From an uncultured archaeon (GTDB lineage: Archaea > Thermoplasmatota > Thermoplasmata > Thermoplasmatales > Thermoplasmataceae), in contig CP009479.1 in NCBI GenBank assembly GCA_000965745.1, positions 1,600,001 through 1,664,000 of the forward strand: a stretch of DNA of 64,000 nt, read 5' to 3'. The notes beneath the pieces were generated by a model. That model was not told the DNA's origin. It searched no databases and saw only the letters and a list, made by a program, of their open reading frames with translations. Positions within the stretch are counted from its first letter, which is position 1, and each line of letters starts with the position of its first letter. A program made the position numbers and the translations under genes. This document shows, in pieces, positions 44,111-64,000 of the stretch.

Positions 44111-45019
44111 CTAAAGGAATCTTATCCTCGTCTCAAGTTCTCCAACCTGTTCAATGCCGGCCTGAACAAGATCTCCATCCTTGAGGTATTCCCCAGTCAT
44201 GGACCCGTTTTTCAAAGGTGTTCCGGTCGATATTATGTCCCCCGGCTCAAGGGTAATTCCTTTTGAAATGTATTCAAGGAGGGCCGGGATCTTGTGGGTG
44301 ATTGTATCTGTTCTTGCGCTCTGCTGTGTCTTGCCGTTTATGCGTACCTTGATCTCAAGATTATAGGGGTCCTTTACCTCGTCCTTTGTGACCATCCATG
44401 GACCCATCGGGGCTGCATTGTCCAGATTCTTCAGTCTCAGCCAGTTGACTTTGTGAATCGGTGAAGGGTGAGCCCTAAGGTCCCTGAAACTGAAATCATT
44501 CATCACTGTGTAGCCTGCCACACAGTCCATCGCTTCATCTTTTGAGACATCCTTGCATCTTTTCCCTATCACGAGCGCCAGTTCAATCTCATTGTCAGGC
44601 TGCCTTGAATATTCCGGAACGTTGACGGTCCCTTTATGGCCCAGAAGGCCGTTTGGAAGTTTTATGAAAACATAAGGCTCCTGCGGGGGTTTAGCCCCGG
44701 GCTCCGGTGCATGGGAGCTGTAGTTTATTCCCACCATCAGCATCTTGCTTGGCTTCAGAACAGGCGGAAGATACTCAATATTTCCCTCCTGGACGATGCA
44801 GGACTGTTCATTTCCATTCCTGCCCTCAAGAAGCTTCTTGAGGATTTCAAACGCATGCTCTCCACCTTTGAGAAGACAATCAACTGAATCGAACCAGTCC
44901 GGCGCATTTGATGCATATCTGGTCTCGAACAGTTTCCTGACATCCAGCAATTCTCCATTTTTGAACGTTCCAAGCCGTGGGCTGGAATTCTCTGTATATC
45001 TGTAATTCAGCAGCTTCAT
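44111..45019 (-). CDS. fumarylacetoacetate hydrolase family protein
   Basis: GINY..H, D.EIEL, ND.S.RD and GDIISTGTP motifs. Confidence 0.92.
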   Translation of the reverse strand: MKLLNYRYTENSSPRLGTFKNGELLDVRKLFETRYASNAPDWFDSVDCLLKGGEHAFEILKKLLEGRNGNEQSCIVQEGNIEYLPPVLKPSKMLMVGINYSSHAPEPGAKPPQEPYVFIKLPNGLLGHKGTVNVPEYSRQPDNEIELALVIGKRCKDVSKDEAMDCVAGYTVMNDFSFRDLRAHPSPIHKVNWLRLKNLDNAAPMGPWMVTKDEVKDPYNLEIKVRINGKTQQSARTDTITHKIPALLEYISKGITLEPGDIISTGTPLKNGSMTGEYLKDGDLVQAGIEQVGELETRIRFL

Positions 45020-45240
45020 TTTCCGTCCCTTCTGAGAGTATTATCGTGCACTGTATTAGAAATTTACCATTATGCAATTTTTTCCGGAACAAATGTGGAG
45101 CATGACGTAAAGTGGGCATTTCCTCACGTAATGATACGAGAACGGATTTTTGTGTAATGCCTTATCAGGCATATCACAGATAATTGTGCATTGCCTCCGG
45201 CGTGCAAAATATATTTAGATATAATGTATGAGGGATTTAG

Positions 45241-46341
45241 GTGGGTTATTCGGAAGACAGTGCAAAGCAGGAAAAACGTTCTATTGACAGAAGGCTGATA
45301 CTTTTCTTTGCGGTTAACATATCTGTTACTGCTCTACTATTCCTGGTTCTTTTCGGAATCTCATCCACATTCACTGCAGGAACAAAAAAAATAATTCTTT
45401 CCTCTGGCATAATCACTTCAAATTTCATTTACCTTGGAGTCCTCGCTCTGCTTTTCGGCTTGAGGCATTCAGTGGATGCAGACCACATAGCTGCAATAGA
45501 CACGTCTACTAGAAAGCTCATAAATGAGGGAAAACGTTCCGAATTTGCTGGATTCTTCTTCAGCATGGGCCACTCCACCGTGGTATTCGCGCTGTCGGTT
45601 TTACTCATGACATCCACAAGGTACGTTACCAGCCACCTGCCCAGCTTAGAGACCCTGGGGTCAGTCATAGGGCCTCTTGTCAGTTCAACCTTCCTATTCA
45701 TAATGGCTGCGATAAACCTATCCATTCTATTCGGACTACGTGCCATTTTCCACAGGGCCCTCAAAGATGACGACGCCGGGAGATTGAGCATTGATGATTT
45801 AATAGGCAGAATGGGGATACTCAACAGAGTACTGAAAGGCCTTTTTTCTTCAGTGAAGAGCCAGGCATATCTATACCCCATAGGCCTTCTGTTCGGGCTT
45901 GGTTTCGACACCGCCTCTGAAGTGGTAGTTTTATCCATTTCAGCTACTCTTGCCGGACTTTTCGTCCATGTTCCACTATACGTTCTTCTCATATTCCCTG
46001 CATTCTTCACTCTTGGAATGACCCTTATTGACACGACTGACGGGTATATGATGTTCAGAGCCTACAGATGGGCATTTTCGGATCCGGTGAAGAAACTCTG
46101 GTATAACATGGTGCTCACAGCTGCCTCAGTCGCCTTTGCAGTTCTGGCAGGCGGCTTCGAGATCATATCCACAGTTACGGGATATTTTGGCCTCAATGGT
46201 TTTCCGTGGGCATTTTTTGAATCGGTATCCAACACCTACTGGTACGTTCTTGGAATTCTCATAATCTCGGTATTTGTTGTCATAGGTCTGCTCTCATACA
46301 TGAGGTATAGAAAGTACCTGGTTTCGAGGACAACCAGTTAG
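45241..46341 (+). CDS. NiCoT (HoxN/NixA) nickel/cobalt permease
   Basis: RHSVDADHIAAID, FFSMGHSTVV and GLGFDTASEV motifs. Confidence 0.93.
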   Translation: MGYSEDSAKQEKRSIDRRLILFFAVNISVTALLFLVLFGISSTFTAGTKKIILSSGIITSNFIYLGVLALLFGLRHSVDADHIAAIDTSTRKLINEGKRSEFAGFFFSMGHSTVVFALSVLLMTSTRYVTSHLPSLETLGSVIGPLVSSTFLFIMAAINLSILFGLRAIFHRALKDDDAGRLSIDDLIGRMGILNRVLKGLFSSVKSQAYLYPIGLLFGLGFDTASEVVVLSISATLAGLFVHVPLYVLLIFPAFFTLGMTLIDTTDGYMMFRAYRWAFSDPVKKLWYNMVLTAASVAFAVLAGGFEIISTVTGYFGLNGFPWAFFESVSNTYWYVLGILIISVFVVIGLLSYMRYRKYLVSRTTS

Positions 46342-46479
46342 CGCCTTCTGATACTGGTTTAATCAGCGCGTCTGATCTTCAACTGCAAGTTGTTGCGTAG
46401 ACTGTTCCATTAATAAGGTATTTTTATCGCAAAACTTCCTGAAAACAAAATTTATCTATAACTCCCTTCTATCAAAATT

Positions 46480-47580
46480 ATGAACAGCAAGCTGGAAGAG
46501 TTGGCGAAGAGGTTTGAAAAGGAGCGAAAACCTACATACTACCAGGATTGGGTCAGGAAGGAGGGGCTGCGCATCATTTCTGGCCATTACATTTACGATC
46601 TCAGGGACGTTGAGCTTGACCCCTGGGAAAGAAGGGGAGGTTCAGCAGTTTTCATAAACCATGAAGATTCCCACAATTCAAATGACTGCTATATCTGCGA
46701 AATTCCACCGGAAGGGCAGCTGAAACCACAGAGGCAGCTCTATGAAGAGATGATCTACGTCCTGGATGGGCAGGGCGCAACTAGAGTGTGGAATGATGCG
46801 GGTGACAAGGTATCTTTCGAATGGCACTCTGGATCCCTTTTTGCCATTCCGCTAAATTCATGGCACGAACATTTCAACACATCAGGGAAGAGGCCTGCCA
46901 GATTCATTTCCGTCACCAATATGCCGGTCGTCATGAACCTGTTCGAGGATGACGATTTTGTCTTTAACACCAAGTTTGATTTCAAGAGCAGATTTTCCGG
47001 CCGATCCGACTACTATGATGCAAAAGACCAGCCGGAAGGTTTCTTCCTTGACACTAACTTTGTACCGGATGTAAGGACGTTGAAGCTTGTTAATGCAAAG
47101 GAGAGAGGAGCCGGCGGAGGTCACATAAGATTTAATCTTGCCAGGGGAACGATGAACAGCCATATCTCGGAATACCCTGTGGGGACTTACAAGAAGGCAC
47201 ACAGGCACGGACCGGGTGCACACGTGGTGATTCTCAGCGGCCAGGGGTACACCCTGATGTGGCCGGAGGGTGAGGAAATAAAGAAATACCCTTGGAAAGA
47301 AGGAAGTATGGTAGTTCCTCCAAACCTGTGGTTCCATCAGCATTTCAATACAGGACCACAGCCTGCCAGGTACCTTGCCTTGAAATATGAGGGAACCGCC
47401 ATAAGGAATGAACTGGGAATACCCAAAGCCTGGATAAGCACCAAGCTTGGTGGTGACCAGCTTGACTACTCAGACGAGAGTACCGAGATCAGAAAGATGT
47501 TTGAGGAGGAGCTGAGAAATAACAATGTTGAATCAAAAATGGCACCTTTCTATGCAAAGGAACTGGAGGAGAGCTCCTGA
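46480..47580 (+). CDS. bicupin protein (EutA-associated)
   Basis: Domain 1: QRQLYEE..WHEHFN. Domain 2: AHRHGPG..WFHQHFN. Confidence 0.85.
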   Translation: MNSKLEELAKRFEKERKPTYYQDWVRKEGLRIISGHYIYDLRDVELDPWERRGGSAVFINHEDSHNSNDCYICEIPPEGQLKPQRQLYEEMIYVLDGQGATRVWNDAGDKVSFEWHSGSLFAIPLNSWHEHFNTSGKRPARFISVTNMPVVMNLFEDDDFVFNTKFDFKSRFSGRSDYYDAKDQPEGFFLDTNFVPDVRTLKLVNAKERGAGGGHIRFNLARGTMNSHISEYPVGTYKKAHRHGPGAHVVILSGQGYTLMWPEGEEIKKYPWKEGSMVVPPNLWFHQHFNTGPQPARYLALKYEGTAIRNELGIPKAWISTKLGGDQLDYSDESTEIRKMFEEELRNNNVESKMAPFYAKELEESS

Positions 47581-47605
47581 AATTTCATCAGGCTGTGCAA
47601 CTTAA

Positions 47606-49084
47606 ATGAGCAATGAGGATCCCCCGACATTCGCCATACAGCATGATGAGGGTTGGGACATAGATTCGGTGAAACTCACCACAATTGGCATAGACATAGG
47701 GACTTCCAGCACCATTGTATCTGTGGCCTCCCTTAGCATGAAGAGGATGGCGCGAGACCTTTCCAGCCAGTTCACTGTTGTATCGAGGCGCGAGAATCAT
47801 GGTTCCAGGATAATGTTCACACCCTATACCGGTGACGAACGAATAGACGGAGATGCTCTTAAAAAGATGATTGATGAATTCTATTCGGAGCATGGTGTCA
47901 GGCCTGACGATGTCGACACCGGTGTGGTTATTCTCACGGGCGAAGCTTTGCTGAAGAAGAACTCTGAAGCGGTTGCCAATATTGTATCTCTTGGAAGGGG
48001 CAGGTTCGTGACCATAGCCGCCGGGCACCTGATGGAAGCCACTCTTGCAGCATTCGGCTCAGGGGCTGTTGAACTCTCAAAGAAAGAGGGAAAACGCATT
48101 CTGAATATTGATATTGGCGGTGGAACCACTAAACTCTCAGTTATTGAGAACGGTGAGATCGAGTCCGTCCAGGCAGTTCGTGTGGGTGGGCACACCATAG
48201 TGAGGGGGCCTGATGGAAGAATCACACGCATAGAGGAATCGGGGAAGGCAGTTCTTGAATGGCTCGGTTATGAATCAAATCCAGGAGATCTGCTGGATGA
48301 TGGAGCAATGGAAAAAGTGTCAGAATTCCTCGCACACTCCTTATTTGATGCCATTTTTGACGCAAAGAGTAATGACATAATCCCGGATTTCACACTCACG
48401 CCCTTAAGTGCTCCTCCCGGGAAAGATGTTGATGCTTTTGTAGTTTCAGGCGGCGTGGGTGAACATTTCTACGACCCGGATACCGAAGATTTTGGGGACC
48501 TCGGGAAAGGAATTGCCACGGTTCTCAGAAAAAGGCTTTCGGAGAGTGATATCAGCATCATGAGGCCGGATCACTGCATCCGGGCAACAGTAATGGGGCT
48601 GTCCCAGTACACCGCTCAAATCAGCGGAAGCACAGTCTATGTTTCGGATGAGAATGCACTTCCGCTCTTCAATATCAGAACGGTCAAAATCGAGGCGGAT
48701 CTCATCGGAGATATTGACAGTGAAAAGTTGAGGCAGAGAATCAAGGAAAGAACGGAGATGTTCGAAGTTGATGTTTCAAGCCCGTTTGCTATGTTTTTTC
48801 ATTGGGATGGAGCCCCCTCCTACAGAAGGCTGAGGGCATTCTGCGAGGGCATAATCAGGTTCGTCGGCTCAATTGATGAAGGGGCCCCGCCACTTATTCT
48901 GATCTTCGATGAGGACGTTGCTTGGATAATCGGAGATATGTTAAAAAGTGAGATGGGAGTAAGGCGAAAGGTTGTCTGCGTGGATGGAGTTTCCCTTGGA
49001 GATCTGGAATTCATAGATATTGGCAGCAAGATATATCCTGCGGGTGTACTTCCCCTGACGGTAAAATCACTCCTCTTCCATTAA
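47606..49084 (+). CDS. EutA-like ASKHA ATPase (reactivase family)
   Basis: GIDIGTSST, TGVVILTGE, AGH.MEA.LA..GSGA, DIGGGTTK, SGGVGE, IRATV.G and P.TVKSL motifs. Confidence 0.88.
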   Translation: MSNEDPPTFAIQHDEGWDIDSVKLTTIGIDIGTSSTIVSVASLSMKRMARDLSSQFTVVSRRENHGSRIMFTPYTGDERIDGDALKKMIDEFYSEHGVRPDDVDTGVVILTGEALLKKNSEAVANIVSLGRGRFVTIAAGHLMEATLAAFGSGAVELSKKEGKRILNIDIGGGTTKLSVIENGEIESVQAVRVGGHTIVRGPDGRITRIEESGKAVLEWLGYESNPGDLLDDGAMEKVSEFLAHSLFDAIFDAKSNDIIPDFTLTPLSAPPGKDVDAFVVSGGVGEHFYDPDTEDFGDLGKGIATVLRKRLSESDISIMRPDHCIRATVMGLSQYTAQISGSTVYVSDENALPLFNIRTVKIEADLIGDIDSEKLRQRIKERTEMFEVDVSSPFAMFFHWDGAPSYRRLRAFCEGIIRFVGSIDEGAPPLILIFDEDVAWIIGDMLKSEMGVRRKVVCVDGVSLGDLEFIDIGSKIYPAGVLPLTVKSLLFH

Positions 49085-49103: not shown

Positions 49104-50327
49104 TCACTGGGCCCCGGCCACTTCCGCTTTATCCCGGGAGTTCTTTTCCTGGAGCTTGAGGAATGGAAGCAGAAGGGAAGCGGATAGCGTGAAAATAAGC
49201 ATTATCCAGAAAGAGAAATAGAGGCTTTCCCTGTAGACAAGGAAGCTCGATAACGCAATGCCCGCTGCTCCGCCCAGAAATTGCCCGACGCCCCACACAA
49301 TTCCACCCGAAGAGGTTGAAATTTCCTTTGGGACGACCTGATTAAGATAGCCAAGAAGCGTTGGGAAACCACTGTAGGTGAAAAATGCATAAATGGAGAA
49401 GAAGAGTGCATCCAGTATCGCATTTGACCCCGACAGCAGGAGGAGGAAGAAGGCCAGCCCGGAGAATATAGTCGTCGTGGTAATTGAGAAAAACCCGCCT
49501 TTTCTCGTAGTCACAATTCCGAAGATGGTCTGCCCGGCTACTGGTGTTAAAACACCCATTGTAAAAATGAAAATTCCGAGAAACTGTGAATTTGTAACAT
49601 TGGCGAGATAGGAAGGCCCATAGGTAGCTACTGCCCTTATAACCATGGCCCTCAGGAAGACCACAGTCATCAGGGAAAATATGAACACCTTGAAAACTGA
49701 CATGTGCCCGGAGAGTGATTTCTTCTGCTTCCTGCCCCTTGATCTTGCAACGCCCTTAATCTTGGGCAATCCAAGGCTGACAAGAACAACAGCGGCGAAC
49801 GTGAAGCCGAGTGCCCACATTATGAACATGCCCTCTACCAGGCCGAATATTCCGATAAGGCCTGCAATTATCAATGGGAATATACCTCTCCCAAAACTTC
49901 CAAAAGAACCGTTTATTCCCAATATCATGGGAGTGTTTCTTCCGTATTCGGACCTTAGTATGCTGGAACCTATAGGGTGGTAGAATGACTGGCCGAAACC
50001 AAGAACTGTGACTCCAATTATGATGTAAAGGAATTCCAGGGTTCCATGCTGTACTGAAAATGCAAAGAAAAGTGCCGCCACTCCATTAAGTGCCAGTCCA
50101 AGTGCTATGAGGACACCCTTCCTCTCAAGTTTGTCTGCCAGTATTCCCACAGGGGTACTCATCGCGCCGGAAACTATCGGGTTCATTATGGCAAGGACTC
50201 CCAGAATTGCCAGATTTGTGGCGGGAAATTCCGTGTAAAGGAAGGTTATCAGTACAGGATAGAGAAATGTGCTGCCATCGTTGGCAAAATGAGCGAATGA
50301 TGTGATTCCAAATACTCTTTTTGACAC
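49104..50327 (-). CDS. MFS transporter (FSR-like)
   Basis: AHFAND, GILADK and FYHP motifs. Confidence 0.88.
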   Translation of the reverse strand: MSKRVFGITSFAHFANDGSTFLYPVLITFLYTEFPATNLAILGVLAIMNPIVSGAMSTPVGILADKLERKGVLIALGLALNGVAALFFAFSVQHGTLEFLYIIIGVTVLGFGQSFYHPIGSSILRSEYGRNTPMILGINGSFGSFGRGIFPLIIAGLIGIFGLVEGMFIMWALGFTFAAVVLVSLGLPKIKGVARSRGRKQKKSLSGHMSVFKVFIFSLMTVVFLRAMVIRAVATYGPSYLANVTNSQFLGIFIFTMGVLTPVAGQTIFGIVTTRKGGFFSITTTTIFSGLAFFLLLLSGSNAILDALFFSIYAFFTYSGFPTLLGYLNQVVPKEISTSSGGIVWGVGQFLGGAAGIALSSFLVYRESLYFSFWIMLIFTLSASLLLPFLKLQEKNSRDKAEVAGAQ

Positions 50328-50431: not shown

Positions 50432-51049
50432 TCAGCTTTTCTGGGCTATTTTGGAACTTTCAAGAATTCTCTGGACTTCTGCAGAGTCGATCGTTTTGCC
50501 TTCCTGGTATTCGGGAGCATTCTCGATCTGTTCAAGGTCGTTGAGGCCACTGAATCTGTAAATCCTGTTTATGGCGGAAATTATTCTTAGAGGTTTGGTC
50601 TCTGATGAATTGAAGTGCTGATGGATTGTGTTTGGTGGTATGTAGACAACATCTCCCTGCCTCCAGTCGAACCTTTTCATCTCCCCCTGTGGGACAAATT
50701 CATACTTATCGGTTATCTCGACGTCACAGTCAACATGCTCGTCGTATCCCTTTCCTTCGAGTATGTAGAGGCACTCTTCAGCAAGATGCCTGTGTTTTCC
50801 TGACCTGCTGCCAGGAGGTATGATCTGCATGTAGACATCCACGGTCTCCATGAGGGTATCCATCTGGGAATTGATCATGTGCTTCAATATGCCCTGGGGT
50901 GCCAGTTCCCATGGCATTTCGATGGGCTTTACGACTCTCTTTTTTCCTTTGCTGTTCTCTGGCCTGTCCCTCGACTCATCGAGAAGACCTCTGTAGAAGT
51001 TGGCAGTCTGGTTCCCACTGAGCCATGTCTTGCTCTCTCCCCATGCCAT
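50432..51049 (-). CDS. cupin protein
   Basis: KHRHLAEE..ILEG.G...IPPNTIHQHFN. Confidence 0.88.
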   Translation of the reverse strand: MAWGESKTWLSGNQTANFYRGLLDESRDRPENSKGKKRVVKPIEMPWELAPQGILKHMINSQMDTLMETVDVYMQIIPPGSRSGKHRHLAEECLYILEGKGYDEHVDCDVEITDKYEFVPQGEMKRFDWRQGDVVYIPPNTIHQHFNSSETKPLRIISAINRIYRFSGLNDLEQIENAPEYQEGKTIDSAEVQRILESSKIAQKS

Positions 51050-51606
51050 TACTCACCACCTTCCTGGTCCGGGTCGGCGTCTTCCCTTGGCTCATATCCT
51101 ACTCCGTTTTCGGTAGGCTCAGTTGGCCTTGGAATAACAGTCTTCTGGAACAGCATATTCATGAACATGTACATTGGCTTGGTCTTTATGACAAGTGCAC
51201 GAGCCGGTTTCTCAGTATCCGCGTTATTGTGCTGGTGAACGCAATTGTTGGGAACAATGGCGACATCCCCCGCCTCCCAGTCATATCTTTCCCCGTCATG
51301 TATCTCATAGCCTTTTCCATCCAGTATGTAGAATGATGCCTCATTTACATGGCCATGCTTCTGGGATTTCCCTCCGGGAGAATATTCTTCCAGGTGGATG
51401 TGAAGTGTTTGGCCAAGCCCGTCAACAGGCTCAATATAATGCTTGCTGAATGTCTGGGGCCCGTCAACGAATTTGATTTCCTCTGCCCTCCTCACTCTTG
51501 GCAAAGACCTAAGTCTTTTGAGTTCTTCCTTAAGATTGTATTCGCCAGATATGGCTCTCACGAATACTCGGTCCTTCTTGCTGTGATAATGAGATTCAGT
51601 TCCCAT
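51049..51606 (-). CDS. cupin protein
   Basis: KHGHVNEA..ILDG.G...VPNNCVHQH; translationally coupled to the next cupin. Confidence 0.88.
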   Translation of the reverse strand: MGTESHYHSKKDRVFVRAISGEYNLKEELKRLRSLPRVRRAEEIKFVDGPQTFSKHYIEPVDGLGQTLHIHLEEYSPGGKSQKHGHVNEASFYILDGKGYEIHDGERYDWEAGDVAIVPNNCVHQHNNADTEKPARALVIKTKPMYMFMNMLFQKTVIPRPTEPTENGVGYEPREDADPDQEGGE

Positions 51607-51728: not shown

Positions 51729-52499
51729 TTACTCTTTTGCAACATTCCATCTGGTGAGGTATTTCTCCAACTGCAGCAATGCAAGGTTAATAGCAATACT
51801 GATGAGCGCGACTGCCGATACCACCACGTATAATTTTATCGGTTGAATGGTGTTTGCAAAGTGAGCTGCTAGGTCCCCTACACCCGATGAGCCGGCCCAT
51901 TCCTCTGCAATCAAGACACCACCCAGCGTGAGGTTGAACGAGAGTCTGGCAGCACTGAGAATGCTCGGAAATACGTTTGGCAGCATGAGCTTCAGCTGGA
52001 GTTGAAGGGAACTGGCACCGAGTGATCTTGAGAGCCTTACGAGATTGGGGTCTACGTTGCTTACAGTATACATCGTAGTTATGAGTACGGGAAACATTCC
52101 GCTGATGAACCCGAAAAAGAACTCATAGCTGAAACCGTATCCAAGCAGGACAGAGAACAGTGTCACGAACATTACCCTCGGGATCGAATTAGCAAGGACA
52201 AGGTAAGGCTCCAGAACCTTTCTCAGATACAGGACCTCTCCTATTATCATACCCAGGGCGGCACCTGCCGCTACCGTACTTACAAACGCTGAAAGCACTA
52301 TCCCCAGGGAATATATGATCTGCGAGTAAATGGAGGGCGTGCCAATAATCGATGCGAAGTGCGTCACAGTATCAATTGGGGAACTGAGCAGTGGGTGAGG
52401 TACTATATTGGCTGAGTAAATGTACTGCCATATAGAAAAGAAGATTGCGAAAGCAAGTATTTGAAGGCCTACGATAATGGCGGTTTTCCTAATGAGCAT
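51729..52499 (-). CDS. ABC transporter permease (NitT/TauT family)
   Basis: EAA-like SRSLGAS loop; LIAEE. Confidence 0.9.
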   Translation of the reverse strand: MLIRKTAIIVGLQILAFAIFFSIWQYIYSANIVPHPLLSSPIDTVTHFASIIGTPSIYSQIIYSLGIVLSAFVSTVAAGAALGMIIGEVLYLRKVLEPYLVLANSIPRVMFVTLFSVLLGYGFSYEFFFGFISGMFPVLITTMYTVSNVDPNLVRLSRSLGASSLQLQLKLMLPNVFPSILSAARLSFNLTLGGVLIAEEWAGSSGVGDLAAHFANTIQPIKLYVVVSAVALISIAINLALLQLEKYLTRWNVAKE

Positions 52500-55496: not shown

Positions 55497-56570
55497 ATGG
55501 CCCTTCAGAAAGATTCAGAAGTTTTCTTAAACCAGCTTGTCCACAAAGGATTCAACACGTACTACGTTTCAAACCAGGGGGGCGGAAAAGGCGGGGGAAC
55601 CTTTACGCGAAATCCCGCCCCCCTCTTCAGCCCCTACAGTTGGAAGTACACCGACGCGAGATCTTATCTTTACAAGCTTTCTGAATTCCTTTCCCACGAA
55701 GATTCTGAAAGAATAAACATCCAATATGAGCATCCCGACCTCAAGGACATCATTTCCGCTGCCACAAGCACCACGCAGAGAGCTGGCATCCAACTCGTGA
55801 AGAGTAAGGCCCATGGACCTGTCCACAGACATACGCCTAATTCATTCCGGGTGGTTCTGGAAGCTCCTGAGGAAGGTGCAATAAGCCGAATAGACGGGGT
55901 GAATCTGGAAATGCACCCGGGTGATGTAATCGGGAACACCAACTGGATCTGGCATGAGCACTTCAACCATGGGACTTCAGATCTAATATGGACATCTTTT
56001 CTGGATGCCATACTGGTTAAATGGATCGGAGGGGTTTTCTATGACCCACCGAAGACATTCAATGGGGACGTGAATTTTCCGGACATATCTCAGGAAGAAT
56101 ATGTAAGCGTGCTTGGCCGATCAACCCTTCCAGAGGAGCTTGGGACAAATCCCAATACTCCACTGCAGTTCTACAGATTCTCTGATGCCTGTAAATCGGT
56201 CAGTGCTCTCTCAAAATTGAAAAGGGGGAAGGAAAGGGTAGCGGTGGAATACAAGAACCCAACCACCGGCGGATCGATTTCGGCAAACCAGTCGCTCAAG
56301 CTAAACCTGATTCCAGGTGGATGCTTAACCCCCATGACAAGGAAAACAGAGAACATCATCTTCCTGAATTTTTCAGGTGAAACTACGCTGGAATTGGGTA
56401 ACGGTGAAGGAGAATTTGTTCTTGGCAAGTACGATGTCGCAGTATTGCCTTCATGGACCTCACACAGAGTGGTTAACAATTCATATTCTGATGAAGCTCT
56501 CTATTTTACAGCTTCTGACGCCCCGTTATTCAAAAATTGCGGCCTATATCGTGAAGAAATTGTCGGGTGA
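55497..56570 (+). CDS. gentisate 1,2-dioxygenase-like cupin
   Basis: VHRHTPNS.R, W.WHEH.N, YKNPTTGG and SDAPL motifs. Confidence 0.85.
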   Translation: MALQKDSEVFLNQLVHKGFNTYYVSNQGGGKGGGTFTRNPAPLFSPYSWKYTDARSYLYKLSEFLSHEDSERINIQYEHPDLKDIISAATSTTQRAGIQLVKSKAHGPVHRHTPNSFRVVLEAPEEGAISRIDGVNLEMHPGDVIGNTNWIWHEHFNHGTSDLIWTSFLDAILVKWIGGVFYDPPKTFNGDVNFPDISQEEYVSVLGRSTLPEELGTNPNTPLQFYRFSDACKSVSALSKLKRGKERVAVEYKNPTTGGSISANQSLKLNLIPGGCLTPMTRKTENIIFLNFSGETTLELGNGEGEFVLGKYDVAVLPSWTSHRVVNNSYSDEALYFTASDAPLFKNCGLYREEIVG

Positions 56571-56727: not shown

Positions 56728-57789
56728 ATGAATAAGACAACGACGATTGCAGTAGCGATTGTTGTTGCTGCTGTTGTCATAGCCGGCGGAATTGTTGGCT
56801 TTGGAACCATTACCAGTGGTAAGAGCAGCGGCAGTAACAACACGAACTACTTGTCTAAGACGAGTTTCAGCGTAGCCGATTTTGGAATTGATCACCCGGA
56901 CGCTGGAGCTTACGGATGGATGGCGGGCACTAGTCACACAAATACGAGCAACACGCTGCAGAAGTACGATCCCAATATAAAGGTCGTAGACCTGAAGGGT
57001 GGAAGTGGCGCAGTAGCATCAGCAATTGCGGCTGGAACAGTACAGATGGGAATGCTCTCCGCTGATGGTGCACTTCACGCAATAAACTCCAGTGTGCCGA
57101 TCAAGATAGTGGGAGTGTACAGAACGTCACCTATAGGTGATTTTGTGTATGTTTCGCCTAGCTCAACCTACAACAAGCTATCGGACCTATCGGGAAAGAA
57201 CGTTACTTTCGCAAACAGCAAGCCAGGAAGCCTGGATGTTCTCCTGAATGGAATAATTGCAGCAGACTACAAAGTGAACATAACACATGATTACGTAGGA
57301 TCACATGAGGCACAGCAGGCAGCAGTGCTTAATGGGAAGGCAACCGCATCCACAGGAGCGTATTTCGATGTATACAAGCTTGTTAAGAGCGGATACCTAA
57401 AGTCCATCGGCAATATAACAGAGAACTGGCCGGCCTTCGTGGTTGTTGCCAACACATCGTTCATACACAATCACCCCAACGCAGTGAAGGCAGCACTTAT
57501 GGGAATGGAATACGGAAACTACCTGTTCGACCAGAACGCAGGCAACTTTGCATACAACTTCCTGAAGTCATACTACAACTTCTCAGCAAGCGAAACTCAG
57601 TTCTTCATGAGCACAATGCACTATTCAACAAACGGAACAATATACCTCAAATCACTTAATGAAGAGCTTACGACCTTGCAGGCGGACAATATCATTTCAC
57701 CGAACCTCAAACTATCACAGCTTTACACAGACCAGTTTTCACAGGTAGTGAATACAACGTATCCGCCAGGAATAATAAGAGCAGCTTGA
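56728..57789 (+). CDS. ABC substrate-binding protein (SsuA/NMT1-like), membrane anchored
   Basis: N-terminal TM; GGSG..AI.AG; FI..HP.AV.A. Confidence 0.82.
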   Translation: MNKTTTIAVAIVVAAVVIAGGIVGFGTITSGKSSGSNNTNYLSKTSFSVADFGIDHPDAGAYGWMAGTSHTNTSNTLQKYDPNIKVVDLKGGSGAVASAIAAGTVQMGMLSADGALHAINSSVPIKIVGVYRTSPIGDFVYVSPSSTYNKLSDLSGKNVTFANSKPGSLDVLLNGIIAADYKVNITHDYVGSHEAQQAAVLNGKATASTGAYFDVYKLVKSGYLKSIGNITENWPAFVVVANTSFIHNHPNAVKAALMGMEYGNYLFDQNAGNFAYNFLKSYYNFSASETQFFMSTMHYSTNGTIYLKSLNEELTTLQADNIISPNLKLSQLYTDQFSQVVNTTYPPGIIRAA

Positions 57790-57878: not shown

Positions 57879-60299
57879 TTATGCCCTGTTTATCAGGTTG
57901 CGTATCTTTTCAGGAGTGAGTGGCAGAGTAGACACCTTTGCGCCATATTCAGAAAGTGCGTCTTCAACTGCATTGCACATTGTGACCAGGGGTCCGAACG
58001 TTTCTCCTTCACCAATGCCCTTTATCCCTAGTGAAGAGCGAGGTGAAGGGGTAACCACATGATCATCCACGATGTTTGGTATCTCCATGGTGGTGGGTTT
58101 CAGATAGTTCGCGAATGATGATGCTATAAGCTGCCCGTCTTCGTCGTAAACGAAATCCTCCATCAAGGCCACGCCAATTCCGTGGGCGACCCCGCCGTGT
58201 AATTGCCCCTGCACTATCTGTGGGTTTATTACATTCCCGATGTCGTGAACAACGAAGTACTTCAGAATGCTGATGATCCCTGTTTCTCTGTCAACTTCTA
58301 TCAATGCAACGTGTGCGGAGTTGGGGTACGTCATATATCCTGTTGGCGAGCCTGATCCGGTCACAAGCTGGTGAGTGGCACCTGTTTCTATCTCTTTAGT
58401 CGCATCAAAGGCCTTGACAGCAGACTCGTTGTTCCCAATCCATGTTACCTCAAGGCCGGGGTCTATTTTGCCGGGTACAAGATAGGGATTCTGGTACGTT
58501 GCCTTTGCAATGTCCTGTATTGTTACCTTGTTTTCCGGGTTGGTCTTCGAGAATGCCACACTCTCGGATACCTCAATATCCTCGGGACCGGTTTTCAACA
58601 TCGCAGCGGCATTCGTAACAACTTTTTGCCTCAGCAGCTTTGCTGCCATCACTGCTGCCTCCACGTCAGGCCCGGAGAATTTGTTTGCATGTGTCCCTGA
58701 GAATGGCGTCCAAGGGCTGTAGTACGAGTCAAACGGATGCACCCTAATGTCATCCGGCTTCATTCCAACAATATCAGAAACTATCTGCACAAATGCGGTA
58801 GAGTGTGAGGTTCCCATATCCGGAGAGCCAGATCTCACGGATGCTGTCCCCCTGGGGTCTATGTTTATGGTAATGCCCTCGATCTCCCTTGCCGTTGCAG
58901 ATGCACCATGTATATATGTCGTGATGCCAATTCCAACCAGCCTTCCCTGCTCCTTAAGCCTGTCCCGTTCCTTTTTCATCTCTTCGTAACCAGAGACTTC
59001 CAGAGCTTTTTTGAGGACGGCCGGGTAATTCCCTGAATCATATATCCTCCCACTTGGTGTTACATATGGAAACTCATCGGGTTGGATGAAATTCCTGAAC
59101 CGTATTTCTGCAGGATCCATCTTCAATTCCTGTGCGACAGTCTCGATCATTCTTTCCACAATGTATACAATTCCAGGTTTGCCGACACCCCTGTTGGGCA
59201 TAGACGGGCATTCATTGGTAAGAACTGTATATGAATCCCACTCAATGTTATTTATTTTGTAGCATCCGCTTATGAGTGTGGCGTGCATTGAAGCATAAGT
59301 TCCAGCATAAGTGAGGGATGCACCGTCATTGTTTATGTCCCTGAACCTGAACGCAAGGATTTTTCCGTCCTTCTTTGCTGCAACTTCTATATCTGCCATA
59401 AGTCCGGCTGTCTGGCCTCCGGATGAAAGATGCTCCGTTCTGTCTTCGAGGTACTTTACATTCATACCGGGCAGCTTCATTGCCAGAATAGTTGCTATTG
59501 AGAGTTGCCTCCAAGGCCTGGTCTTCAGTCCAAAGCCACCTCCTATATCATTGATTATCAGGTGCACGCTGTTAGATGGAATCCCGAAAATCTTCGAAAT
59601 AGTCATCATCACGTGGCCCGGCATCTGGGCATTAGATTTCAGTGTAAGCTCTCCGGAAATGTCATCGTATGTGGCGATAACAGAGACTGATTCAAGCGGT
59701 GTTGAACTGTATCTCTGAAGGCCCACCCTCTTTTTTAACACGACATCCGCCTGCTTGAAGGCACCTTCCACGTCGCCCCACTTACCATGGTTATGGCCCA
59801 CAACGTTCGTTCCAAATGAGTCATAGACTAGCGGAGAATCCTTTGACATAGCACTTTCAGGGTCCACTACAGGTTTTAGAGGCTCATATTCGACGTCTAT
59901 CAATTCAAGAGCATCTTCCGCCAGTTCAGGAGAGATGGCTGCAACTGCCGCTACTGGCTCTCCCATGTACCTGACCTTCTTGGTTGCAAGACAGTATTCT
60001 TCGGACGGGAACTTTGATATGGCATAGGGAGGCAGTGGCTGGGAATATTTCAGAGCATCATCGCCTGTTGCAACTTCTATTACCCCTTCCATCTTCCGGA
60101 CCCGCGAAACATCCACCTTCAGTAATCTGGCATGTGCGTACGGGCTCCTCAGGATTGCCACGAATACGGTGTCCGCCACCCTCAAGTCTTCCACAAAGTT
60201 GGTGTTTCCCGTCAACAGTCTCTTGTCCTCTACCCTTCTAAGTGACGTGCCTATGTAATTTCTTCTTTCTTCCTGGGTTACCTGGATCTGTTCTACCAT
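57879..60299 (-). CDS. molybdenum hydroxylase (xanthine dehydrogenase/CoxL-like) large subunit
   Basis: RSPYAHA, GGGFGLK, GQLHGG and KGIGE motifs; lacks the CODH AYxCSFR loop. Confidence 0.92.
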   Translation of the reverse strand: MVEQIQVTQEERRNYIGTSLRRVEDKRLLTGNTNFVEDLRVADTVFVAILRSPYAHARLLKVDVSRVRKMEGVIEVATGDDALKYSQPLPPYAISKFPSEEYCLATKKVRYMGEPVAAVAAISPELAEDALELIDVEYEPLKPVVDPESAMSKDSPLVYDSFGTNVVGHNHGKWGDVEGAFKQADVVLKKRVGLQRYSSTPLESVSVIATYDDISGELTLKSNAQMPGHVMMTISKIFGIPSNSVHLIINDIGGGFGLKTRPWRQLSIATILAMKLPGMNVKYLEDRTEHLSSGGQTAGLMADIEVAAKKDGKILAFRFRDINNDGASLTYAGTYASMHATLISGCYKINNIEWDSYTVLTNECPSMPNRGVGKPGIVYIVERMIETVAQELKMDPAEIRFRNFIQPDEFPYVTPSGRIYDSGNYPAVLKKALEVSGYEEMKKERDRLKEQGRLVGIGITTYIHGASATAREIEGITINIDPRGTASVRSGSPDMGTSHSTAFVQIVSDIVGMKPDDIRVHPFDSYYSPWTPFSGTHANKFSGPDVEAAVMAAKLLRQKVVTNAAAMLKTGPEDIEVSESVAFSKTNPENKVTIQDIAKATYQNPYLVPGKIDPGLEVTWIGNNESAVKAFDATKEIETGATHQLVTGSGSPTGYMTYPNSAHVALIEVDRETGIISILKYFVVHDIGNVINPQIVQGQLHGGVAHGIGVALMEDFVYDEDGQLIASSFANYLKPTTMEIPNIVDDHVVTPSPRSSLGIKGIGEGETFGPLVTMCNAVEDALSEYGAKVSTLPLTPEKIRNLINRA

Positions 60300-60301
60300 A
60301 A

Positions 60302-60856
60302 TTATGAACCTCCTGAATTTTTATTGTTCCTGTTTCCTGCTTCACTTCCGAAATTCGATGAGCTTGCCTCTTTAACTGCCTTGATTATGTTGAGGTACCC
60401 TGTGCACATGCAGAGATTTCCTGCCAGCCCTTTCCTTATCTCTTCTTCGGACGGGTGTGGGTTCTTTCCCAACAGATAAAGGGAAGACATCAGGAATCCA
60501 GGGGTGCAATAGCCGCATTGCAATGCATGGTTTCTGGCAAAGGATTCCTGCAGAGCGCTAAGATTGCCGTTGGAACTTATCCCTTCAACGGTGGTGACCT
60601 TTGTTCCATTCGCCCTCGCAGCGAGAACAGTGCAGGACTTGACGGATTTTCCGTCCATGAGGACCGTGCATGCTCCGCAGTTTGTCGTGTCACACCCTAC
60701 ATGTATGCCCTTGACGCCCAGATGGTCCCTCAAAAAGAAAGCGAGGAGAGACCTCGGCTCAACGTCAGCCTCTACCGGTACACCATTAAGCTCAAATTCC
60801 AGGTCGATTTTCTGTACACTCACTTCTTTCCTCTTTTTCCTTTGGGAAGAGATCAT
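60302..60856 (-). CDS. Mo-hydroxylase 2x[2Fe-2S] small subunit
   Basis: GCD..CGACT, QCGYCTPG and CMCTGY motifs. Confidence 0.95.
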   Translation of the reverse strand: MISSQRKKRKEVSVQKIDLEFELNGVPVEADVEPRSLLAFFLRDHLGVKGIHVGCDTTNCGACTVLMDGKSVKSCTVLAARANGTKVTTVEGISSNGNLSALQESFARNHALQCGYCTPGFLMSSLYLLGKNPHPSEEEIRKGLAGNLCMCTGYLNIIKAVKEASSSNFGSEAGNRNNKNSGGS

Positions 60857-61734
60857 TTCGTACCACCCCTTAACCTGTTCATTGCCTCAAGAAGAGCTCT
60901 CTTAACGTATTCGCTGCCCACCTCTTTCTTATATTCAGCACTCCCTCTGATTGCATCATCGAGTGGGTCCATATCGTCTCTTGAAGATTCAGCGGCGTCT
61001 GCTATGCTTTCTGGCGTGAGTTCCTTTCCGATAAGTGCCTTCTCGGCACTCTCTGACCTAATATTCGTCATTCCGAGTGAAGTCAACCCGATGCCCACAT
61101 ATTTGCATACATCCTGTTCATCAACTTTTAGCTGAACGGCTGCACCAAGAACAGCAAAATCCCCTGCCCGCCTTTCAAGTTTTGCATAAGTGCCGGAACT
61201 CCTTTCCCCGTAAACTGGAATAGTAACAGAAGATAGAATTTCGTCTTCTCCCAGGGCGGGCGTAAAACTGTCAACGAAGAAATCATCAGCCCTGATTTCC
61301 CTGCTTCCGTCCGAGCTCGACACTTGAACGGTACCTCTCATCGCTATCAACGCTGATCCCCAGTCACCTGAAGGGTCTGCGTGGCAAAGTCCACCTCCTA
61401 TGGTTCCCATGTTCCTGACCTGTTCGTCGCCTATATGGGAAGCAGTCTCTGACATCAGAAATGCTTTCTTCCGTATCAGGCCAGAAGCTTCAACTTCCCC
61501 GTGAGTAGCCAGTGCTCCAATTCTGATATGGCCCTTCTCTTCGGATATGTCGGCCAGCCCTTTTATGCCTGAAATGTCCACAATATGCTCAAACCTTGTC
61601 AGCCTTAGCTTGAGCACCGGTATGAGGCTCATACCGCCAGCCAGTACTTTCGACTCACCTGAATGCTTGCGAAGCAATTCAGATGCTTCCCCAATATTCT
61701 TGGGCGTGTAATATTGAAATTGTGCCGGATACAT
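60853..61734 (-). CDS. Mo-hydroxylase FAD-binding medium subunit
   Basis: LAGGMSL and RNMGTIGG..HADP..D motifs. Confidence 0.95.
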   Translation of the reverse strand: MYPAQFQYYTPKNIGEASELLRKHSGESKVLAGGMSLIPVLKLRLTRFEHIVDISGIKGLADISEEKGHIRIGALATHGEVEASGLIRKKAFLMSETASHIGDEQVRNMGTIGGGLCHADPSGDWGSALIAMRGTVQVSSSDGSREIRADDFFVDSFTPALGEDEILSSVTIPVYGERSSGTYAKLERRAGDFAVLGAAVQLKVDEQDVCKYVGIGLTSLGMTNIRSESAEKALIGKELTPESIADAAESSRDDMDPLDDAIRGSAEYKKEVGSEYVKRALLEAMNRLRGGTK

Positions 61735-62031: not shown

Positions 62032-63036
62032 ATGGCAAACGTCCCAATAAGTCTAGCGATGGCAGACTATGATAGAACGAAAGCACTTATCGAAGGATTC
62101 CACAAGCCAGTCGGAATAGACCTTACATATGTCGTATCCCCACCATCGGAAACTTTCTGGAGAATGCTCAGATTTGCAGAGTTCGAGGCATCCGAAATGT
62201 CACTTTCAACCTTTCTGATTTCTAAATCCCAGGGCAGAAAATGGAAGGCAATACCCGTATTTCCTTTCAGGGGTTTTTTCCACACCAACATATTTGTATC
62301 AAGGAAGTCAAGTGTAAAAGAGCCCGAGGACCTGAAGGGAAAGAAGTTCGGTGTCCCTGAGTACCAGGTAACAGCAGCTGTCTGGCTGAGGGGAGCCCTC
62401 GAAGAAGATTTCGGGGTTGCACCTCAGGATATGACGTGGTACGTGGAACGCAAGAAAGGCCTCAGCCACGGCGGTGAAACTTCTTTCAAGCCTCCTGAAG
62501 GGGTTAAAATTGAGCAGGTTCCAGAGGGAGAAACGCTTGACTCAATGATAAGATCCGGGAAACTAGATGCCATAATGCCCAGCCCATATCCGGGCATGAA
62601 ATCGCTGTTGAATAAGACCGATTATCTGGAGCTGAGTAAATCGGATGAAGTCAGGCTGCTTTTTGATGACCCAGTGGAGGAAGGTAGGAGATTCTTCAAA
62701 AAGCATGGATATAGCCACATAAACCACACTGTGATAGTGAGGGATGATGTGGTAGAGAAGTATCCATGGGTCCCACTTAACCTCTATAAGGCCTTTGAAG
62801 AGTCCAAAATAATCTCAAACCAGAAACTTGACAAGATGATCAAATCTAGTCTAGTCTTCGGATTTCCATACCTGATGAAAGAGAGGGAGATATTCGGAGG
62901 AGATGCGTTTCCTTATGGTATGGACAGGAACAGGAAAGCTCTGGAAGAATTGGTTCAGATGTCGGTTAATCAAGGACTTACCTCTAAGCCCCTAGATCTG
63001 GATTCCCTCTTCTATGAAGATACGTTGAATGCTTAA
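62032..63036 (+). CDS. 4,5-dihydroxyphthalate decarboxylase-like (PBP-fold) protein
   Basis: YDRT.AL..G, E.FWR..EF..SEMS, PVFP.R, GVPEYQ.TA.VW.RG, H and PYG...NR motifs; no signal peptide. Confidence 0.8.
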   Translation: MANVPISLAMADYDRTKALIEGFHKPVGIDLTYVVSPPSETFWRMLRFAEFEASEMSLSTFLISKSQGRKWKAIPVFPFRGFFHTNIFVSRKSSVKEPEDLKGKKFGVPEYQVTAAVWLRGALEEDFGVAPQDMTWYVERKKGLSHGGETSFKPPEGVKIEQVPEGETLDSMIRSGKLDAIMPSPYPGMKSLLNKTDYLELSKSDEVRLLFDDPVEEGRRFFKKHGYSHINHTVIVRDDVVEKYPWVPLNLYKAFEESKIISNQKLDKMIKSSLVFGFPYLMKEREIFGGDAFPYGMDRNRKALEELVQMSVNQGLTSKPLDLDSLFYEDTLNA

Positions 63037-63151
63037 TTCCTGACCATTTTTAACCAATTTTTTTTGTTATGCCCTATAATTGCTGATAAACTGAGTATAT
63101 TACAATATAGTGGTGAGGTAAATTTATAATATTTCTTGATATCAATCCTTT

Positions 63152-64000
63152 ATGGAACAAAAACTAACTGATCTACTGGAAGAACTGCCGAAGAATAACT
63201 ACAACACATATTATCAGTCTTCAGCAGGCAGGGGAAAACACAAGACAATAATGTCAACAATACCTTCACCCATAGCAGAACCCTTCAGTTGGGACTACGA
63301 AAGGACAAAAGAATTCCTCTACCGCCTTAGTGAAATCCTGACCCCGGAAGAAGCGGAAAGACTCAATATACAGTTTGAAAACCCATCGCTGAAAGACATA
63401 GTGCCTGCAGCCCTTGCACCTACCGTCAGGGGCGGAATACAGCTGCTGAAGCCAGGTCAGAAGGCACCAACTCATAAGCATTCCCCCAATGCCTTCAGGC
63501 TGATCCTGGAAGCTCCTGCCGATGATGCATACACTGTTGTTAACGGAGTGGAACTTCCAATGCACACCGGAGACCTCGTCCTGACCCCCAACTGGACGTG
63601 GCATGACCATCATAATGACAGCAGTGGCGACGTCATATGGTTTGACGGGCTTGACATAATATTTGTTTACTGGATAGGCGGTGTGTTTTACTCTCTGCCC
63701 AAAGGTGAGAAATCACCCAATACAGTTGCGGAGGACGGCAATGATAATTTCAACGAGTATGGAAGCGGGCTGGTACCTGACACAGTGCACGGAGAGCTCG
63801 ATTACGATCCGATGTTTTACTACCCGTATGAAAAGGCCAGGCAGGCCCTCGTGTCCCTTGCAAAGACAAGAACCGGGGAGAGCAGTGTGACCCTTGAATA
63901 TACAAACCCGATAACCGGGGGGCCTGTATTTCCCTCGATGGGCCTCAAGCTTACCATGGTGAGGGGAGGCAAGACGACTCCATTAATTCAAAGAACTGAA
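63152..64000 (+). CDS. second gentisate 1,2-dioxygenase-like cupin (3' partial)
   Basis: Read manually because it is absent from the ORF track: MEQKLTDLL...THKHSPNAFR...PNWTWHDH.N..WFDGLD...YTNPITGG; open to the window end. Confidence 0.85.
   Translation, partial: MEQKLTDLLEELPKNNYNTYYQSSAGRGKHKTIMSTIPSPIAEPFSWDYERTKEFLYRLSEILTPEEAERLNIQFENPSLKDIVPAALAPTVRGGIQLLKPGQKAPTHKHSPNAFRLILEAPADDAYTVVNGVELPMHTGDLVLTPNWTWHDHHNDSSGDVIWFDGLDIIFVYWIGGVFYSLPKGEKSPNTVAEDGNDNFNEYGSGLVPDTVHGELDYDPMFYYPYEKARQALVSLAKTRTGESSVTLEYTNPITGGPVFPSMGLKLTMVRGGKTTPLIQRTE

Follow-up and report, generated by a model that had tools for sequence, protein, structure and literature searches.

The gene island described here lies in a 64,000-nucleotide window of the genome of a Thermoplasmatales archaeon (G000:C1:1600001-1664000; by the window we mean this whole stretch). 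It is moderately likely to catabolise hydroxylated aromatic acids, probably those with two or more carboxyl groups, through a gentisate-type lower pathway of dioxygenase, lactone/ester hydrolase and FAH-family hydrolase that is fed by non-oxidative decarboxylation. This reading of the sequence is carried by the gene families, which were assigned with Pfam and NCBIfam, by intact catalytic motifs and by the recurrence of the genes as a block in three archaeal lineages. Within the island, the ring-cleavage genes are joined to a module of a bicupin, two monocupins and an ATPase of the EutA family, in a genome that has no ethanolamine ammonia-lyase.

The source genome (G000) is a single contig of 2.23 Mb and is 99.4% complete; it belongs to the Thermoplasmatales and not to the Sulfolobales, to which some NCBIfam names ('glyceraldehyde dehydrogenase') could point. 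From window position 44111 the island extends over ~23.3 kb to genome position 1667422 (window-equivalent 67422). It thus ends 3.4 kb beyond the window, and the first-pass annotation of this DNA was right to let it run on past the window end. The next 20 kb were fetched (locus L001, in which position 6313 is window-equivalent 66313) and supply the rest of dioxygenase 2, a PcaD-like α/β-hydrolase, an ACMSD-type Amidohydro_2 decarboxylase and a second transporter of the major facilitator superfamily (MFS2). Every gene class in the first-pass inventory was found again, but a 1.3-kb insertion sequence of the ISL3 family had been overlooked; likewise, its two ring-cleavage dioxygenase-like cupins are indeed two full-length bicupins, but cupin proteins of the gentisate-dioxygenase class number five. 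Family assignments and synteny also support the succession it had suggested, namely uptake, hydroxylation, decarboxylation, ring cleavage and hydrolysis. In the following, G001, G010 and G018 denote Thermoplasmatales relatives and L numbers denote fetched loci.

Ring-cleavage genes and the proposed route

The two dioxygenases, which are 40% identical to each other, align over their full length with solved gentisate dioxygenases (dioxygenase 2 with PDB 2d40 at E 2.4e-51). Both keep the metal motif H-x-H...H, read from the sequences as HRH...WHEH in dioxygenase 1 and HKH...WHDH in dioxygenase 2, and we take these residues to be the three-histidine Fe(II) ligands of the N-terminal barrel. By sequence, both are members of the gentisate-dioxygenase family with a putative substrate specificity; we call them family members and not gentisate dioxygenases because their bit scores stay below the equivalog cut-off. 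The FAH-family protein matches the C-terminal domain of HpaG (E 6.5e-51) and the maleylpyruvate hydrolase 6jvv (E 7.5e-27) in the PDB and is proposed, on this basis, to be an acylpyruvate (maleylpyruvate-type) hydrolase. Its orthologues occur in the islands of G001, G010, G018, L019 and L100 and in the bacterial loci L187 and L188. For the α/β-hydrolase, enol-lactonases and esterases are better matches than C-C hydrolases.

Upstream of ring cleavage, the island encodes two decarboxylases and a molybdenum hydroxylase. The PhtD-like protein has a binding-protein fold, lacks a signal peptide and is cytoplasmic; its assignment is sound at the level of homology. The closest relatives of the Amidohydro_2 protein are ACMSD, γ-resorcylate and 5-carboxyvanillate decarboxylases, and its sequence retains HP, HHLGG and DYP, which we take to be the Amidohydro_2 motifs. 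Among solved structures, the large subunit of the molybdenum hydroxylase (MoL) is nearest to CoxL (E 8e-129) and quinoline 2-oxidoreductase (E 3e-104); it also matches nicotinate dehydrogenase (E 8e-42). It is one of seven molybdenum large-subunit paralogues in G000, and orthologues with 61-63% identity adjoin the cupin/EutA-like module in L100 and L189.

From these families we infer the order of the steps and the class of the substrate as follows. The acids would be taken up by the NitT/TauT-type ATP-binding cassette (ABC) importer and the two carboxylate MFS carriers, and the molybdenum hydroxylase would add a ring hydroxyl group or convert an aldehyde to the acid. The PhtD-like and ACMSD-type enzymes, two unrelated non-oxidative decarboxylases, would then remove carboxyl groups to leave a salicylate/gentisate-type ring, that is, an ortho-hydroxy-carboxylate, which the gentisate-dioxygenase-class bicupins would open between C1 and C2. 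Finally, the PcaD-like lactone/ester hydrolase and the FAH-family acylpyruvate hydrolase would release pyruvate and a C4 diacid, independently of a thiol-dependent isomerase. A lactone hydrolase acting ahead of maleylpyruvate is used in the 5-nitrosalicylate pathway.

Several observations weigh against this route. Both dioxygenases miss the TIGR02272 equivalog cut-off of 442 bits (137 and 234 bits), and HpaG and diketo-rhamnonate hydrolases are nearer relatives of the FAH-family protein than the solved maleylpyruvate hydrolase is. We know of no enzyme in the island that forms a para-diol on a benzene ring, and molybdenum hydroxylases classically act on N-heterocycles or aldehydes. In addition, the ISL3 element lies directly upstream of dioxygenase 1, separated from it by 31 A/T-rich bases, and may disturb expression in this strain.

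The comparison with described systems is mixed. Like the gentisate pathway (TIGR02272, PDB 2d40/3bu7, 6jvv), the island has two full-length bicupins with H-x-H...H; an FAH-family gene is also present and co-conserved, but its protein is closer to HpaG than to 6jvv. Unlike it, the dioxygenases are below the equivalog cut-off, no maleylpyruvate isomerase-type Pfam domain is found in the island, and its Pfam assignments include no flavin- or Rieske-type gentisate-forming hydroxylase. Across G000 no Rieske oxygenase large subunit was found, PF00355 matching only small ferredoxin-type and respiratory Rieske proteins, and FAD_binding_3 matches lie only outside the island. The PcaD-like hydrolase, the two decarboxylases, the molybdenum hydroxylase and the cupin/EutA module go beyond the gentisate pathway. 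With the o-phthalate pathway the island shares a PhtD-like protein that is homologous over its whole length to PhtD/Pht5 (PDB 9jp7), and importers of the island's family are used for phthalate uptake; however, G000 lacks a Rieske phthalate dioxygenase, the island lacks a dihydrodiol dehydrogenase, and the downstream enzymes are gentisate-type, whereas those of the o-phthalate pathway are protocatechuate-type. The first-pass annotation had concluded that no described cluster fits. This holds in so far as the genes that define the pht, pic/nic and classical gentisate clusters are absent, but the core of dioxygenase and FAH-family hydrolase stands nearer to the gentisate lower pathway than it had allowed. 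Our literature search returned no description of such a cluster.

The main rival to a homocyclic substrate is an N-heteroaromatic one, such as pyridine mono- or dicarboxylates of the quinolinate or picolinate type, which we regard as possible but rather unlikely. Here, the molybdenum enzyme would hydroxylate beside the ring nitrogen, the PhtD-like and Amidohydro_2 proteins would decarboxylate, the cupins would cleave an aza-gentisate or dihydroxypyridine, and the α/β-hydrolase would serve as deformylase or amidase; parallels are the conversion of 4-hydroxyphthalate to 3-hydroxybenzoate and the action of PicC on 3,6-dihydroxypicolinate. The molybdenum enzyme indeed belongs to the class of the classical N-heterocycle hydroxylases, as its matches to quinoline 2-oxidoreductase and nicotinate dehydrogenase indicate. 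The pic pathway combines a molybdenum dehydrogenase, an Amidohydro_2 decarboxylase and an α/β-hydrolase deformylase (bioRxiv 10.1101/530550), enzyme classes that parallel the island's three-subunit molybdenum dehydrogenase class, Amidohydro_2 (PicC-like class) and α/β-hydrolase, a match at class level and not an established orthology to PicA or PicC. Furthermore, three-subunit molybdenum hydroxylase genes are paired with Amidohydro_2 three times in G000, once together with a PF04199 cyclase/formamidase-family gene, a MoL homologue lies in the fetched flank of 7 of 80 bacterial PhtD-like loci, and isochorismatase-type amidases adjoin the module in two bacteria. On the other hand, the Pfam assignments of the island include neither the PicB-type monooxygenase nor a NicX/PicD-type dioxygenase, a maleamate amidase or a maleate isomerase; cupin dioxygenases and the FAH-family hydrolase are found where the pic and nic clusters have these enzymes, and an FAH-family C-C hydrolase would be superfluous in the known pyridine routes. 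Bacterial units of α/β-hydrolase, FAH-family hydrolase and dioxygenase that come with a flavin phenol-type hydroxylase, class II aldolase decarboxylases and TauD point to homocyclic acids, and the loci of G018 and L019 keep the core while no island-type molybdenum hydroxylase was detected in their fetched DNA.

The cupin and EutA-like module

The bicupin of the module has more than 7,700 homologues, with 63-69% identity in Firmicutes and Proteobacteria. It carries a four-histidine site in the C-terminal barrel, and Q-x-Q replaces H-x-H in the N-terminal barrel. An AlphaFold2 model (pLDDT 92) matched only generic bicupins in a fold search (oxalate decarboxylase, MncA, vicilins, gentisate dioxygenase; TM-score ~0.48) and gave no functional lead. 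In a quick, unrooted tree, the Thermoplasmatales bicupins form one clade next to a Nitrososphaerales sequence within otherwise bacterial diversity; because the tree is unrooted and a careful tree search was incomplete, we draw no direction of transfer from it.

The two monocupin genes overlap by one base at their junction. Together with both barrels of the 366-aa bicupin, the monocupins are mutual paralogues, and their best solved sequence relatives are gentisate dioxygenase barrels. The 185-aa monocupin is the most conserved protein of the island, being 88% identical to its counterpart in Alicyclobacillus dauci and 79% to that in a Nitrososphaerales metagenome-assembled genome (MAG), which reflects either extreme constraint or recent cross-domain transfer among acidophiles. 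The ATPase neighbouring this cupin is only ~40% identical. For the 205-aa monocupin, identities are 62-64% in A. dauci, Paenibacillus thalictri and the Nitrososphaerales MAG. A search of the ESM Atlas with the 185-aa cupin returned unnamed cupin clusters only, and the plasmid collection held only 37%-identical paralogues in rhizobial replicons. As single barrels of ~200 aa with a 3-His(-Glu) site related to gentisate dioxygenases, the monocupins resemble the monocupin 5-nitrosalicylate 1,2-dioxygenase (PDB 8ch4) and other third-class cupin ring-cleaving dioxygenases. Unlike in 8ch4, to which the similarity is marginal (E 0.08), there are two paralogous monocupins and a bicupin that always travel with an ATPase.

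This ATPase is homologous over its full length to EutA (PF06277), the reactivating factor of ethanolamine ammonia-lyase, and shares its ASKHA architecture. In contrast to EutA, it falls below all EutA equivalog cut-offs (best 262 bits, against a cut-off of 598), and its conserved neighbour and predicted partner is the bicupin. EutB (PF06751) has no match in the source genome, and B12-binding domains occur there only at a distance of ~700 kb or more. A short histidine-rich N-terminal leader (at least four His) is present in 102 of the 115 nearest EutA-like homologues; these leaders are rich in His and Asp, and some of the proteins also have long His-rich tails. We know of no such leaders in canonical EutA.

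A complex between the bicupin and the ATPase was predicted with an ipSAE of 0.65 (median of three runs), and the best control reached 0.00; at least 86% of the contacts agree between runs and the pLDDT of the partners is at least 78. Of 80 solved complexes, 58 reached the mark used for ipSAE, as did 2 of 110 mismatched pairs; this calibration is approximate here because our own alignments were used. The model places invariant ATPase residues (G402-R408, around Y406, and D435-G443) at the mouth of the N-terminal bicupin barrel, beside the conserved H129 and H131. The ATPase is thus predicted to dock on the bicupin, its proposed partner, and the complex model supports binding. As the PDB contains no EutA-family chain, the complex could not have been remembered by the prediction model.

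As part of the main reading, we take the module cupins to be further metal-dependent oxygenases or ring-transforming enzymes, possibly with nickel or cobalt, and the ATPase to be a dedicated cupin partner that would load or repair the metal site, and not, in this genome, a reactivase of a B12 enzyme. A more far-reaching proposal is a tentative one: the bicupin and the two monocupins may be nickel- or cobalt-dependent aromatic-acid enzymes whose metal centre is installed or repaired by the EutA-family ASKHA ATPase. If this is true, the EutA family would have a new, B12-independent function, and the ATPase would be a new kind of metallocentre chaperone, driven by ATP and unrelated to the G3E GTPases. 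Such a B12-independent role can be tested directly, given that ATPase and cupin are predicted to touch, that most homologues have His-rich leaders and that nickel/cobalt permeases lie nearby. None of the sources used, nor the literature searched, assigns a function to the module.

The permease next to the bicupin gene (NiCoT, NicO) is a single copy in the genome, and its signature, RHSVDADHI at residues 85-93, does not discriminate nickel from cobalt. G000, A. dauci and P. thalictri each have a NicO gene close to the module, as do 4 of 42 metagenome loci (described below). Other points tell against the metal proposal. The four Thermoplasmatales EutA-like proteins, that of G000 included, have no His-rich leader. 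Within this order NicO does not co-vary with the bicupin: G003 and G018 have NicO but lack the bicupin, and in G010, a bicupin carrier, NicO was not found. The link between permease and module is therefore weaker within the Thermoplasmatales than the adjacency in G000 implies. The G000 permease is 58% identical to the G001 copy, which lies on another contig, and 39% to the module-linked Alicyclobacillus copy. Co-transfer of NicO with the module was considered and is unsupported by the phyletic pattern of NicO and the identities of its copies.

An alternative explanation, which we hold to be possible though doubtful, is that the ATPase is a reactivase of an oxidised or inhibitor-blocked Fe(II) cupin, or a kinase- or ligase-like catalytic subunit, with NicO as an unrelated housekeeping permease. 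Canonical EutA and the diol-dehydratase reactivases free a damaged cofactor and do not insert metal, and cupins of the gentisate-dioxygenase class are normally Fe(II) enzymes that are prone to inactivation; both facts fit this alternative, as do the leaderless Thermoplasmatales ATPases, the NicO distribution and copy identities just described and weak similarities of the ATPase to hydantoinase- and BcrAD-type ASKHA proteins. Opposed to it are the His/Asp-rich leaders and tails in most homologues and the repeated occurrence of NicO near the module in unrelated lineages. The metal inventory of G000 also argues for the loading role: no urease, no true [NiFe] hydrogenase (a NuoD-like trace only) and no CbiC were found in this genome, which leaves it without another recognised nickel enzyme or a corrin-synthesis marker.

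Conservation in archaea and bacteria

The first-pass annotation treated the genes as one island that should be conserved jointly, and they do recur as one block in three archaeal lineages and share a patchy phyletic distribution. Among 61 relatives searched, five have the PhtD-like gene, five have dioxygenase 2 and three have the bicupin; these are largely the same genomes (G000, G001, G010, G018). Most relatives lack the entire set, and two genomes of the same genus (96% and 88% complete) have none of these three genes. In G001, of the same genus, the whole set is contiguous, and neither the insertion sequence nor NicO is part of it; G010, of another genus, has the full set in rearranged order with a third dioxygenase added. 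The core shared by G018 and a Thermoplasmataceae MAG (L019) consists of α/β-hydrolase, dioxygenase 2, Amidohydro_2, PhtD-like and FAH-family genes and an MFS transporter (MFS2 in G018, MFS transporter 1 in L019).

Outside the Thermoplasmatales, ~16 kb of the Nitrososphaerales MAG contain the small (MoS) and large molybdenum subunits, two monocupins, the bicupin, the EutA-like ATPase, α/β-hydrolase, FAH-family hydrolase, a dioxygenase and the same ABC family, with identities to the island of 63% for MoL, 79% for the 185-aa cupin and 66% for the bicupin; a Pfam Amidohydro_2 gene is also present, without a tblastn match to the island copy. The MAG locus L189 has bicupin, EutA-like ATPase, ABC system, MoS, MoL and dioxygenase, and Sulfolobus tengchongensis has Amidohydro_2, α/β-hydrolase, PhtD-like protein, dioxygenase, cupin, bicupin and ABC system. 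Because recurrences and absences coincide across the relatives and the other lineages, the set is, as far as the genomes compared show, an accessory unit gained and lost jointly. What appears to be new is the archaeal fusion of the cupin/EutA-like module with ring-cleavage, molybdenum and ABC genes in three lineages.

As a side observation, the G001 island carries an additional short-chain dehydrogenase and a thiamine diphosphate (ThDP) enzyme (L011:15971-18614), both missing from G000. This ThDP enzyme has no G000 orthologue and is unrelated (~20% identical) to the ThDP enzyme associated with the module in bacteria. For the latter, glyoxylate carboligase and oxalyl-CoA decarboxylase were considered but are not supported, its best models being the unnamed PRK08327 and then benzoylformate decarboxylase.

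In bacteria, the two parts of the island are found separately. L187 (Woeseiaceae) and L188 contain PhtD-like, TauD, class II aldolase, α/β-hydrolase, FAH-family and dioxygenase genes and a Tct importer, L187 additionally a flavin aromatic-ring hydroxylase; the unit of α/β-hydrolase, FAH-family hydrolase and dioxygenase is thus conserved between bacteria and archaea. Each of the five loci inspected for the module, bacterial or archaeal, combines bicupin, EutA-like ATPase and two monocupins; in A. dauci, P. thalictri, a Beijerinckiaceae MAG and another long contig, a Tct or ABC importer comes with it. A metagenome set of 42 loci of at least 8 kb, centred on the EutA-like ATPase, contained the bicupin in 30, an unnamed ThDP enzyme in 10, TctC in 8 (TctA in 7) and a PhtD-like gene in 4. 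Where the ATPase gene has at least 2.5 kb on both sides, a bicupin (at least 45% identity) is present in 12 of 24 loci, directly adjacent in 7 of these.

These bacterial loci raise the possibility, which we consider quite unlikely, of two independent neighbouring systems: a gentisate-type pathway, and a module that handles another small carboxylate, not necessarily aromatic, with its own transporter. None of the 42 bacterial metagenome loci pairs the EutA-like gene with a dioxygenase, FAH-family or MoL gene, and for this reason the two halves of the island may serve different substrates, which counts against a single route. The bacterial module is instead seen with Tct or Fbp-type ABC importers, the unnamed ThDP enzyme and IclR regulators. 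In the same direction point G018 and L019, in which the ring-cleavage core was found and neither the EutA-like gene nor the monocupin pair was detected (L019 has a cut bicupin fragment at its edge), and the nearest solved folds of the bicupin, which are oxalate decarboxylases and storage proteins at a TM-score of only ~0.48. However, in each of three independent archaeal lineages the module is interleaved with molybdenum, ABC, dioxygenase, α/β-hydrolase and FAH-family genes, even though the order of the genes has been rearranged. Moreover, the bicupin gene immediately adjoins a PhtD-like gene in the bacterial loci L060, L075 and L091, the first of which also has the EutA-like ATPase and molybdenum subunits, a PhtD-like gene is also part of the Paenibacillus locus, and the best solved sequence relatives of the cupin barrels are those of gentisate dioxygenases. 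Another idea, that the molybdenum enzyme serves as a CO dehydrogenase which removes the CO released by Ni-cupin dioxygenases (quercetinase or acireductone type), was rejected because the Cu-binding Cys loop is missing: form I aerobic CO dehydrogenase (CoxL) has the active-site loop AYxCSFR with its Cu-binding cysteine, a motif not found in the large subunit, in which the presumed equivalent loop, located by eye without an alignment, reads PNRGVGKPG.

Returning to a single route for aromatic acids, the module has thousands of homologues in soil bacteria, and the island offers the best context for it so far, since its position among ring-cleavage genes here narrows its substrate to aromatic acids. 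The island suggests that acidophilic archaea can use aromatic acids derived from humic matter, lignin or char. To our knowledge, aerobic cleavage of aromatic rings by archaea other than haloarchaea and a few Sulfolobales has little documentation, and in the literature searched we found no paper tying Thermoplasmatales to a gentisate-type pathway. If the proposed metal-dependent module is joined to such a route, aerobic aromatic ring cleavage of this kind would extend over Thermoplasmatales, Nitrososphaerales and Sulfolobales, for which no such pathway is described in the searchable literature.

Transporters, mobile elements and setting of the island

The features of the island are listed in Table 1. 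The closest NCBIfam models of the ABC importer are SaoP/SaoA, SsuC and TauC. Its substrate-binding protein has a membrane anchor at the N-terminus, followed by a Ser/Thr/Asn linker; both the transporter and orthologues of the binding protein are found in the islands of G001, G010, L019, L100, L186 and L189.

Table 1 Features of the island in order of position (window coordinates, or coordinates in L001 for genes past the window end)
Feature	Position	Strand	Evidence
FAH-family hydrolase (302 aa)	44111-45019	-	PF01557 E 5e-63
NiCoT (HoxN/NixA-family) Ni/Co permease	45241-46341	+	PF03824 E 1.9e-72, TIGR00802
Bicupin (366 aa), unnamed highly conserved family	46480-47580	+	Cupin_2 x2
EutA-family ASKHA ATPase (492 aa)	47606-49084	+	PF06277 E 1.4e-97; residues 23-492 vs profile 2-475 of 475
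MFS transporter 1 (407 aa)	49104-50327	-	PF07690 E 4e-24; orthologues in G001, G010 and L019 islands
Monocupin (205 aa), 3-His-1-Glu motif	50432-51049	-	Cupin_2/Auxin_BP; PDB gentisate dioxygenase barrel E 3e-8
Monocupin (185 aa), 3-His-1-Glu motif	51049-51606	-	Cupin_2 E 4e-16; PDB gentisate dioxygenase barrel E 1e-11
NitT/TauT-type ABC importer	51729-54058	-	Permeases 51729-52499 and 52489-53271; ATPase 53261-54058; BPD_transp_1 x2, ABC_tran
ISL3-family insertion sequence (1,301 bp)	54165-55465	+	Transposase 54269-55441; NF033550 E 1.4e-92
Gentisate-1,2-dioxygenase-like bicupin 1 (357 aa)	55497-56570	+	TIGR02272 E 5e-40, 137 bits; orthologue in G001
ABC substrate-binding protein (353 aa)	56728-57789	+	PF12974/PF09084, SsuA family
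Molybdenum hydroxylase	57879-61734	-	Large Mo subunit 57879-60299, [2Fe-2S] 60302-60856, FAD 60853-61734; Pfam
PhtD-like decarboxylase (334 aa)	62032-63036	+	4,5-dihydroxyphthalate decarboxylase 9jp7 E 2.2e-55, residues 4-331
Gentisate-1,2-dioxygenase-like bicupin 2 (352 aa)	63152-64210 (window cuts at 64000)	+	TIGR02272 E 1.8e-69, 234 bits
α/β-hydrolase	L001:4240-5046	-	PcaD-like E 2e-37; esterase 4uhc E 5e-35
Amidohydro_2 decarboxylase	L001:5129-6184	-	ACMSD E 2e-31
MFS2	L001:6313-7422	-	Metabolite/H+ symporter family

The MFS2 gene has ~80 conserved N-terminal codons 5' of its first ATG, GTG or TTG (L001:6313-7665(-), window-equivalent 66313-67665). These align with the orthologues of G010 and G018, and the frame is open from a TGA without a canonical start there, so that translation must begin at a near-cognate codon (CTG or ACG) unless the gene has lost its start codon.

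The ISL3 element sits in the divergent intergenic region separating the ABC ATPase gene from dioxygenase 1, has terminal inverted repeats and is flanked by an 8-bp target duplication (AATTATTA). G000 holds four near-identical copies (99.3-100%), each with its own 8-bp target duplication, and at the corresponding spot G001 has only 128 bp and no element. The insertion is recent and the element active, and it stands outside the pathway. A second sign of mobile elements visiting the island is an IS605-type TnpB/OrfB gene in G018 (L017:2879-4081(+)), which lies between Amidohydro_2 and the PhtD-like paralogue of the core island.

With a GC content of 0.45-0.48, the island does not differ from the surrounding DNA in base composition. 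On the right it stops ahead of a CBS-pair gene and cytochrome bd. The CBS-pair protein (177 aa, L001:7918-8451(+), window-equivalent 67918-68451) flanks the island in both G000 and G001 (68% identical), and its G010 homologue (44% identical) is encoded inside the island; the protein may sense a small molecule and regulate the island. Elsewhere in G000, a second catabolic-looking cluster (C1:654001-672000, locus L184) contains three UbiD-family decarboxylases, a PF04199 cyclase/formamidase-family gene, an α/β-hydrolase, Amidohydro_2, a molybdenum hydroxylase with small, medium and large subunits and an MFS transporter, and a further group of Amidohydro_2 and medium, small and large molybdenum subunit genes lies at ~337.5-342.2 kb (L185).

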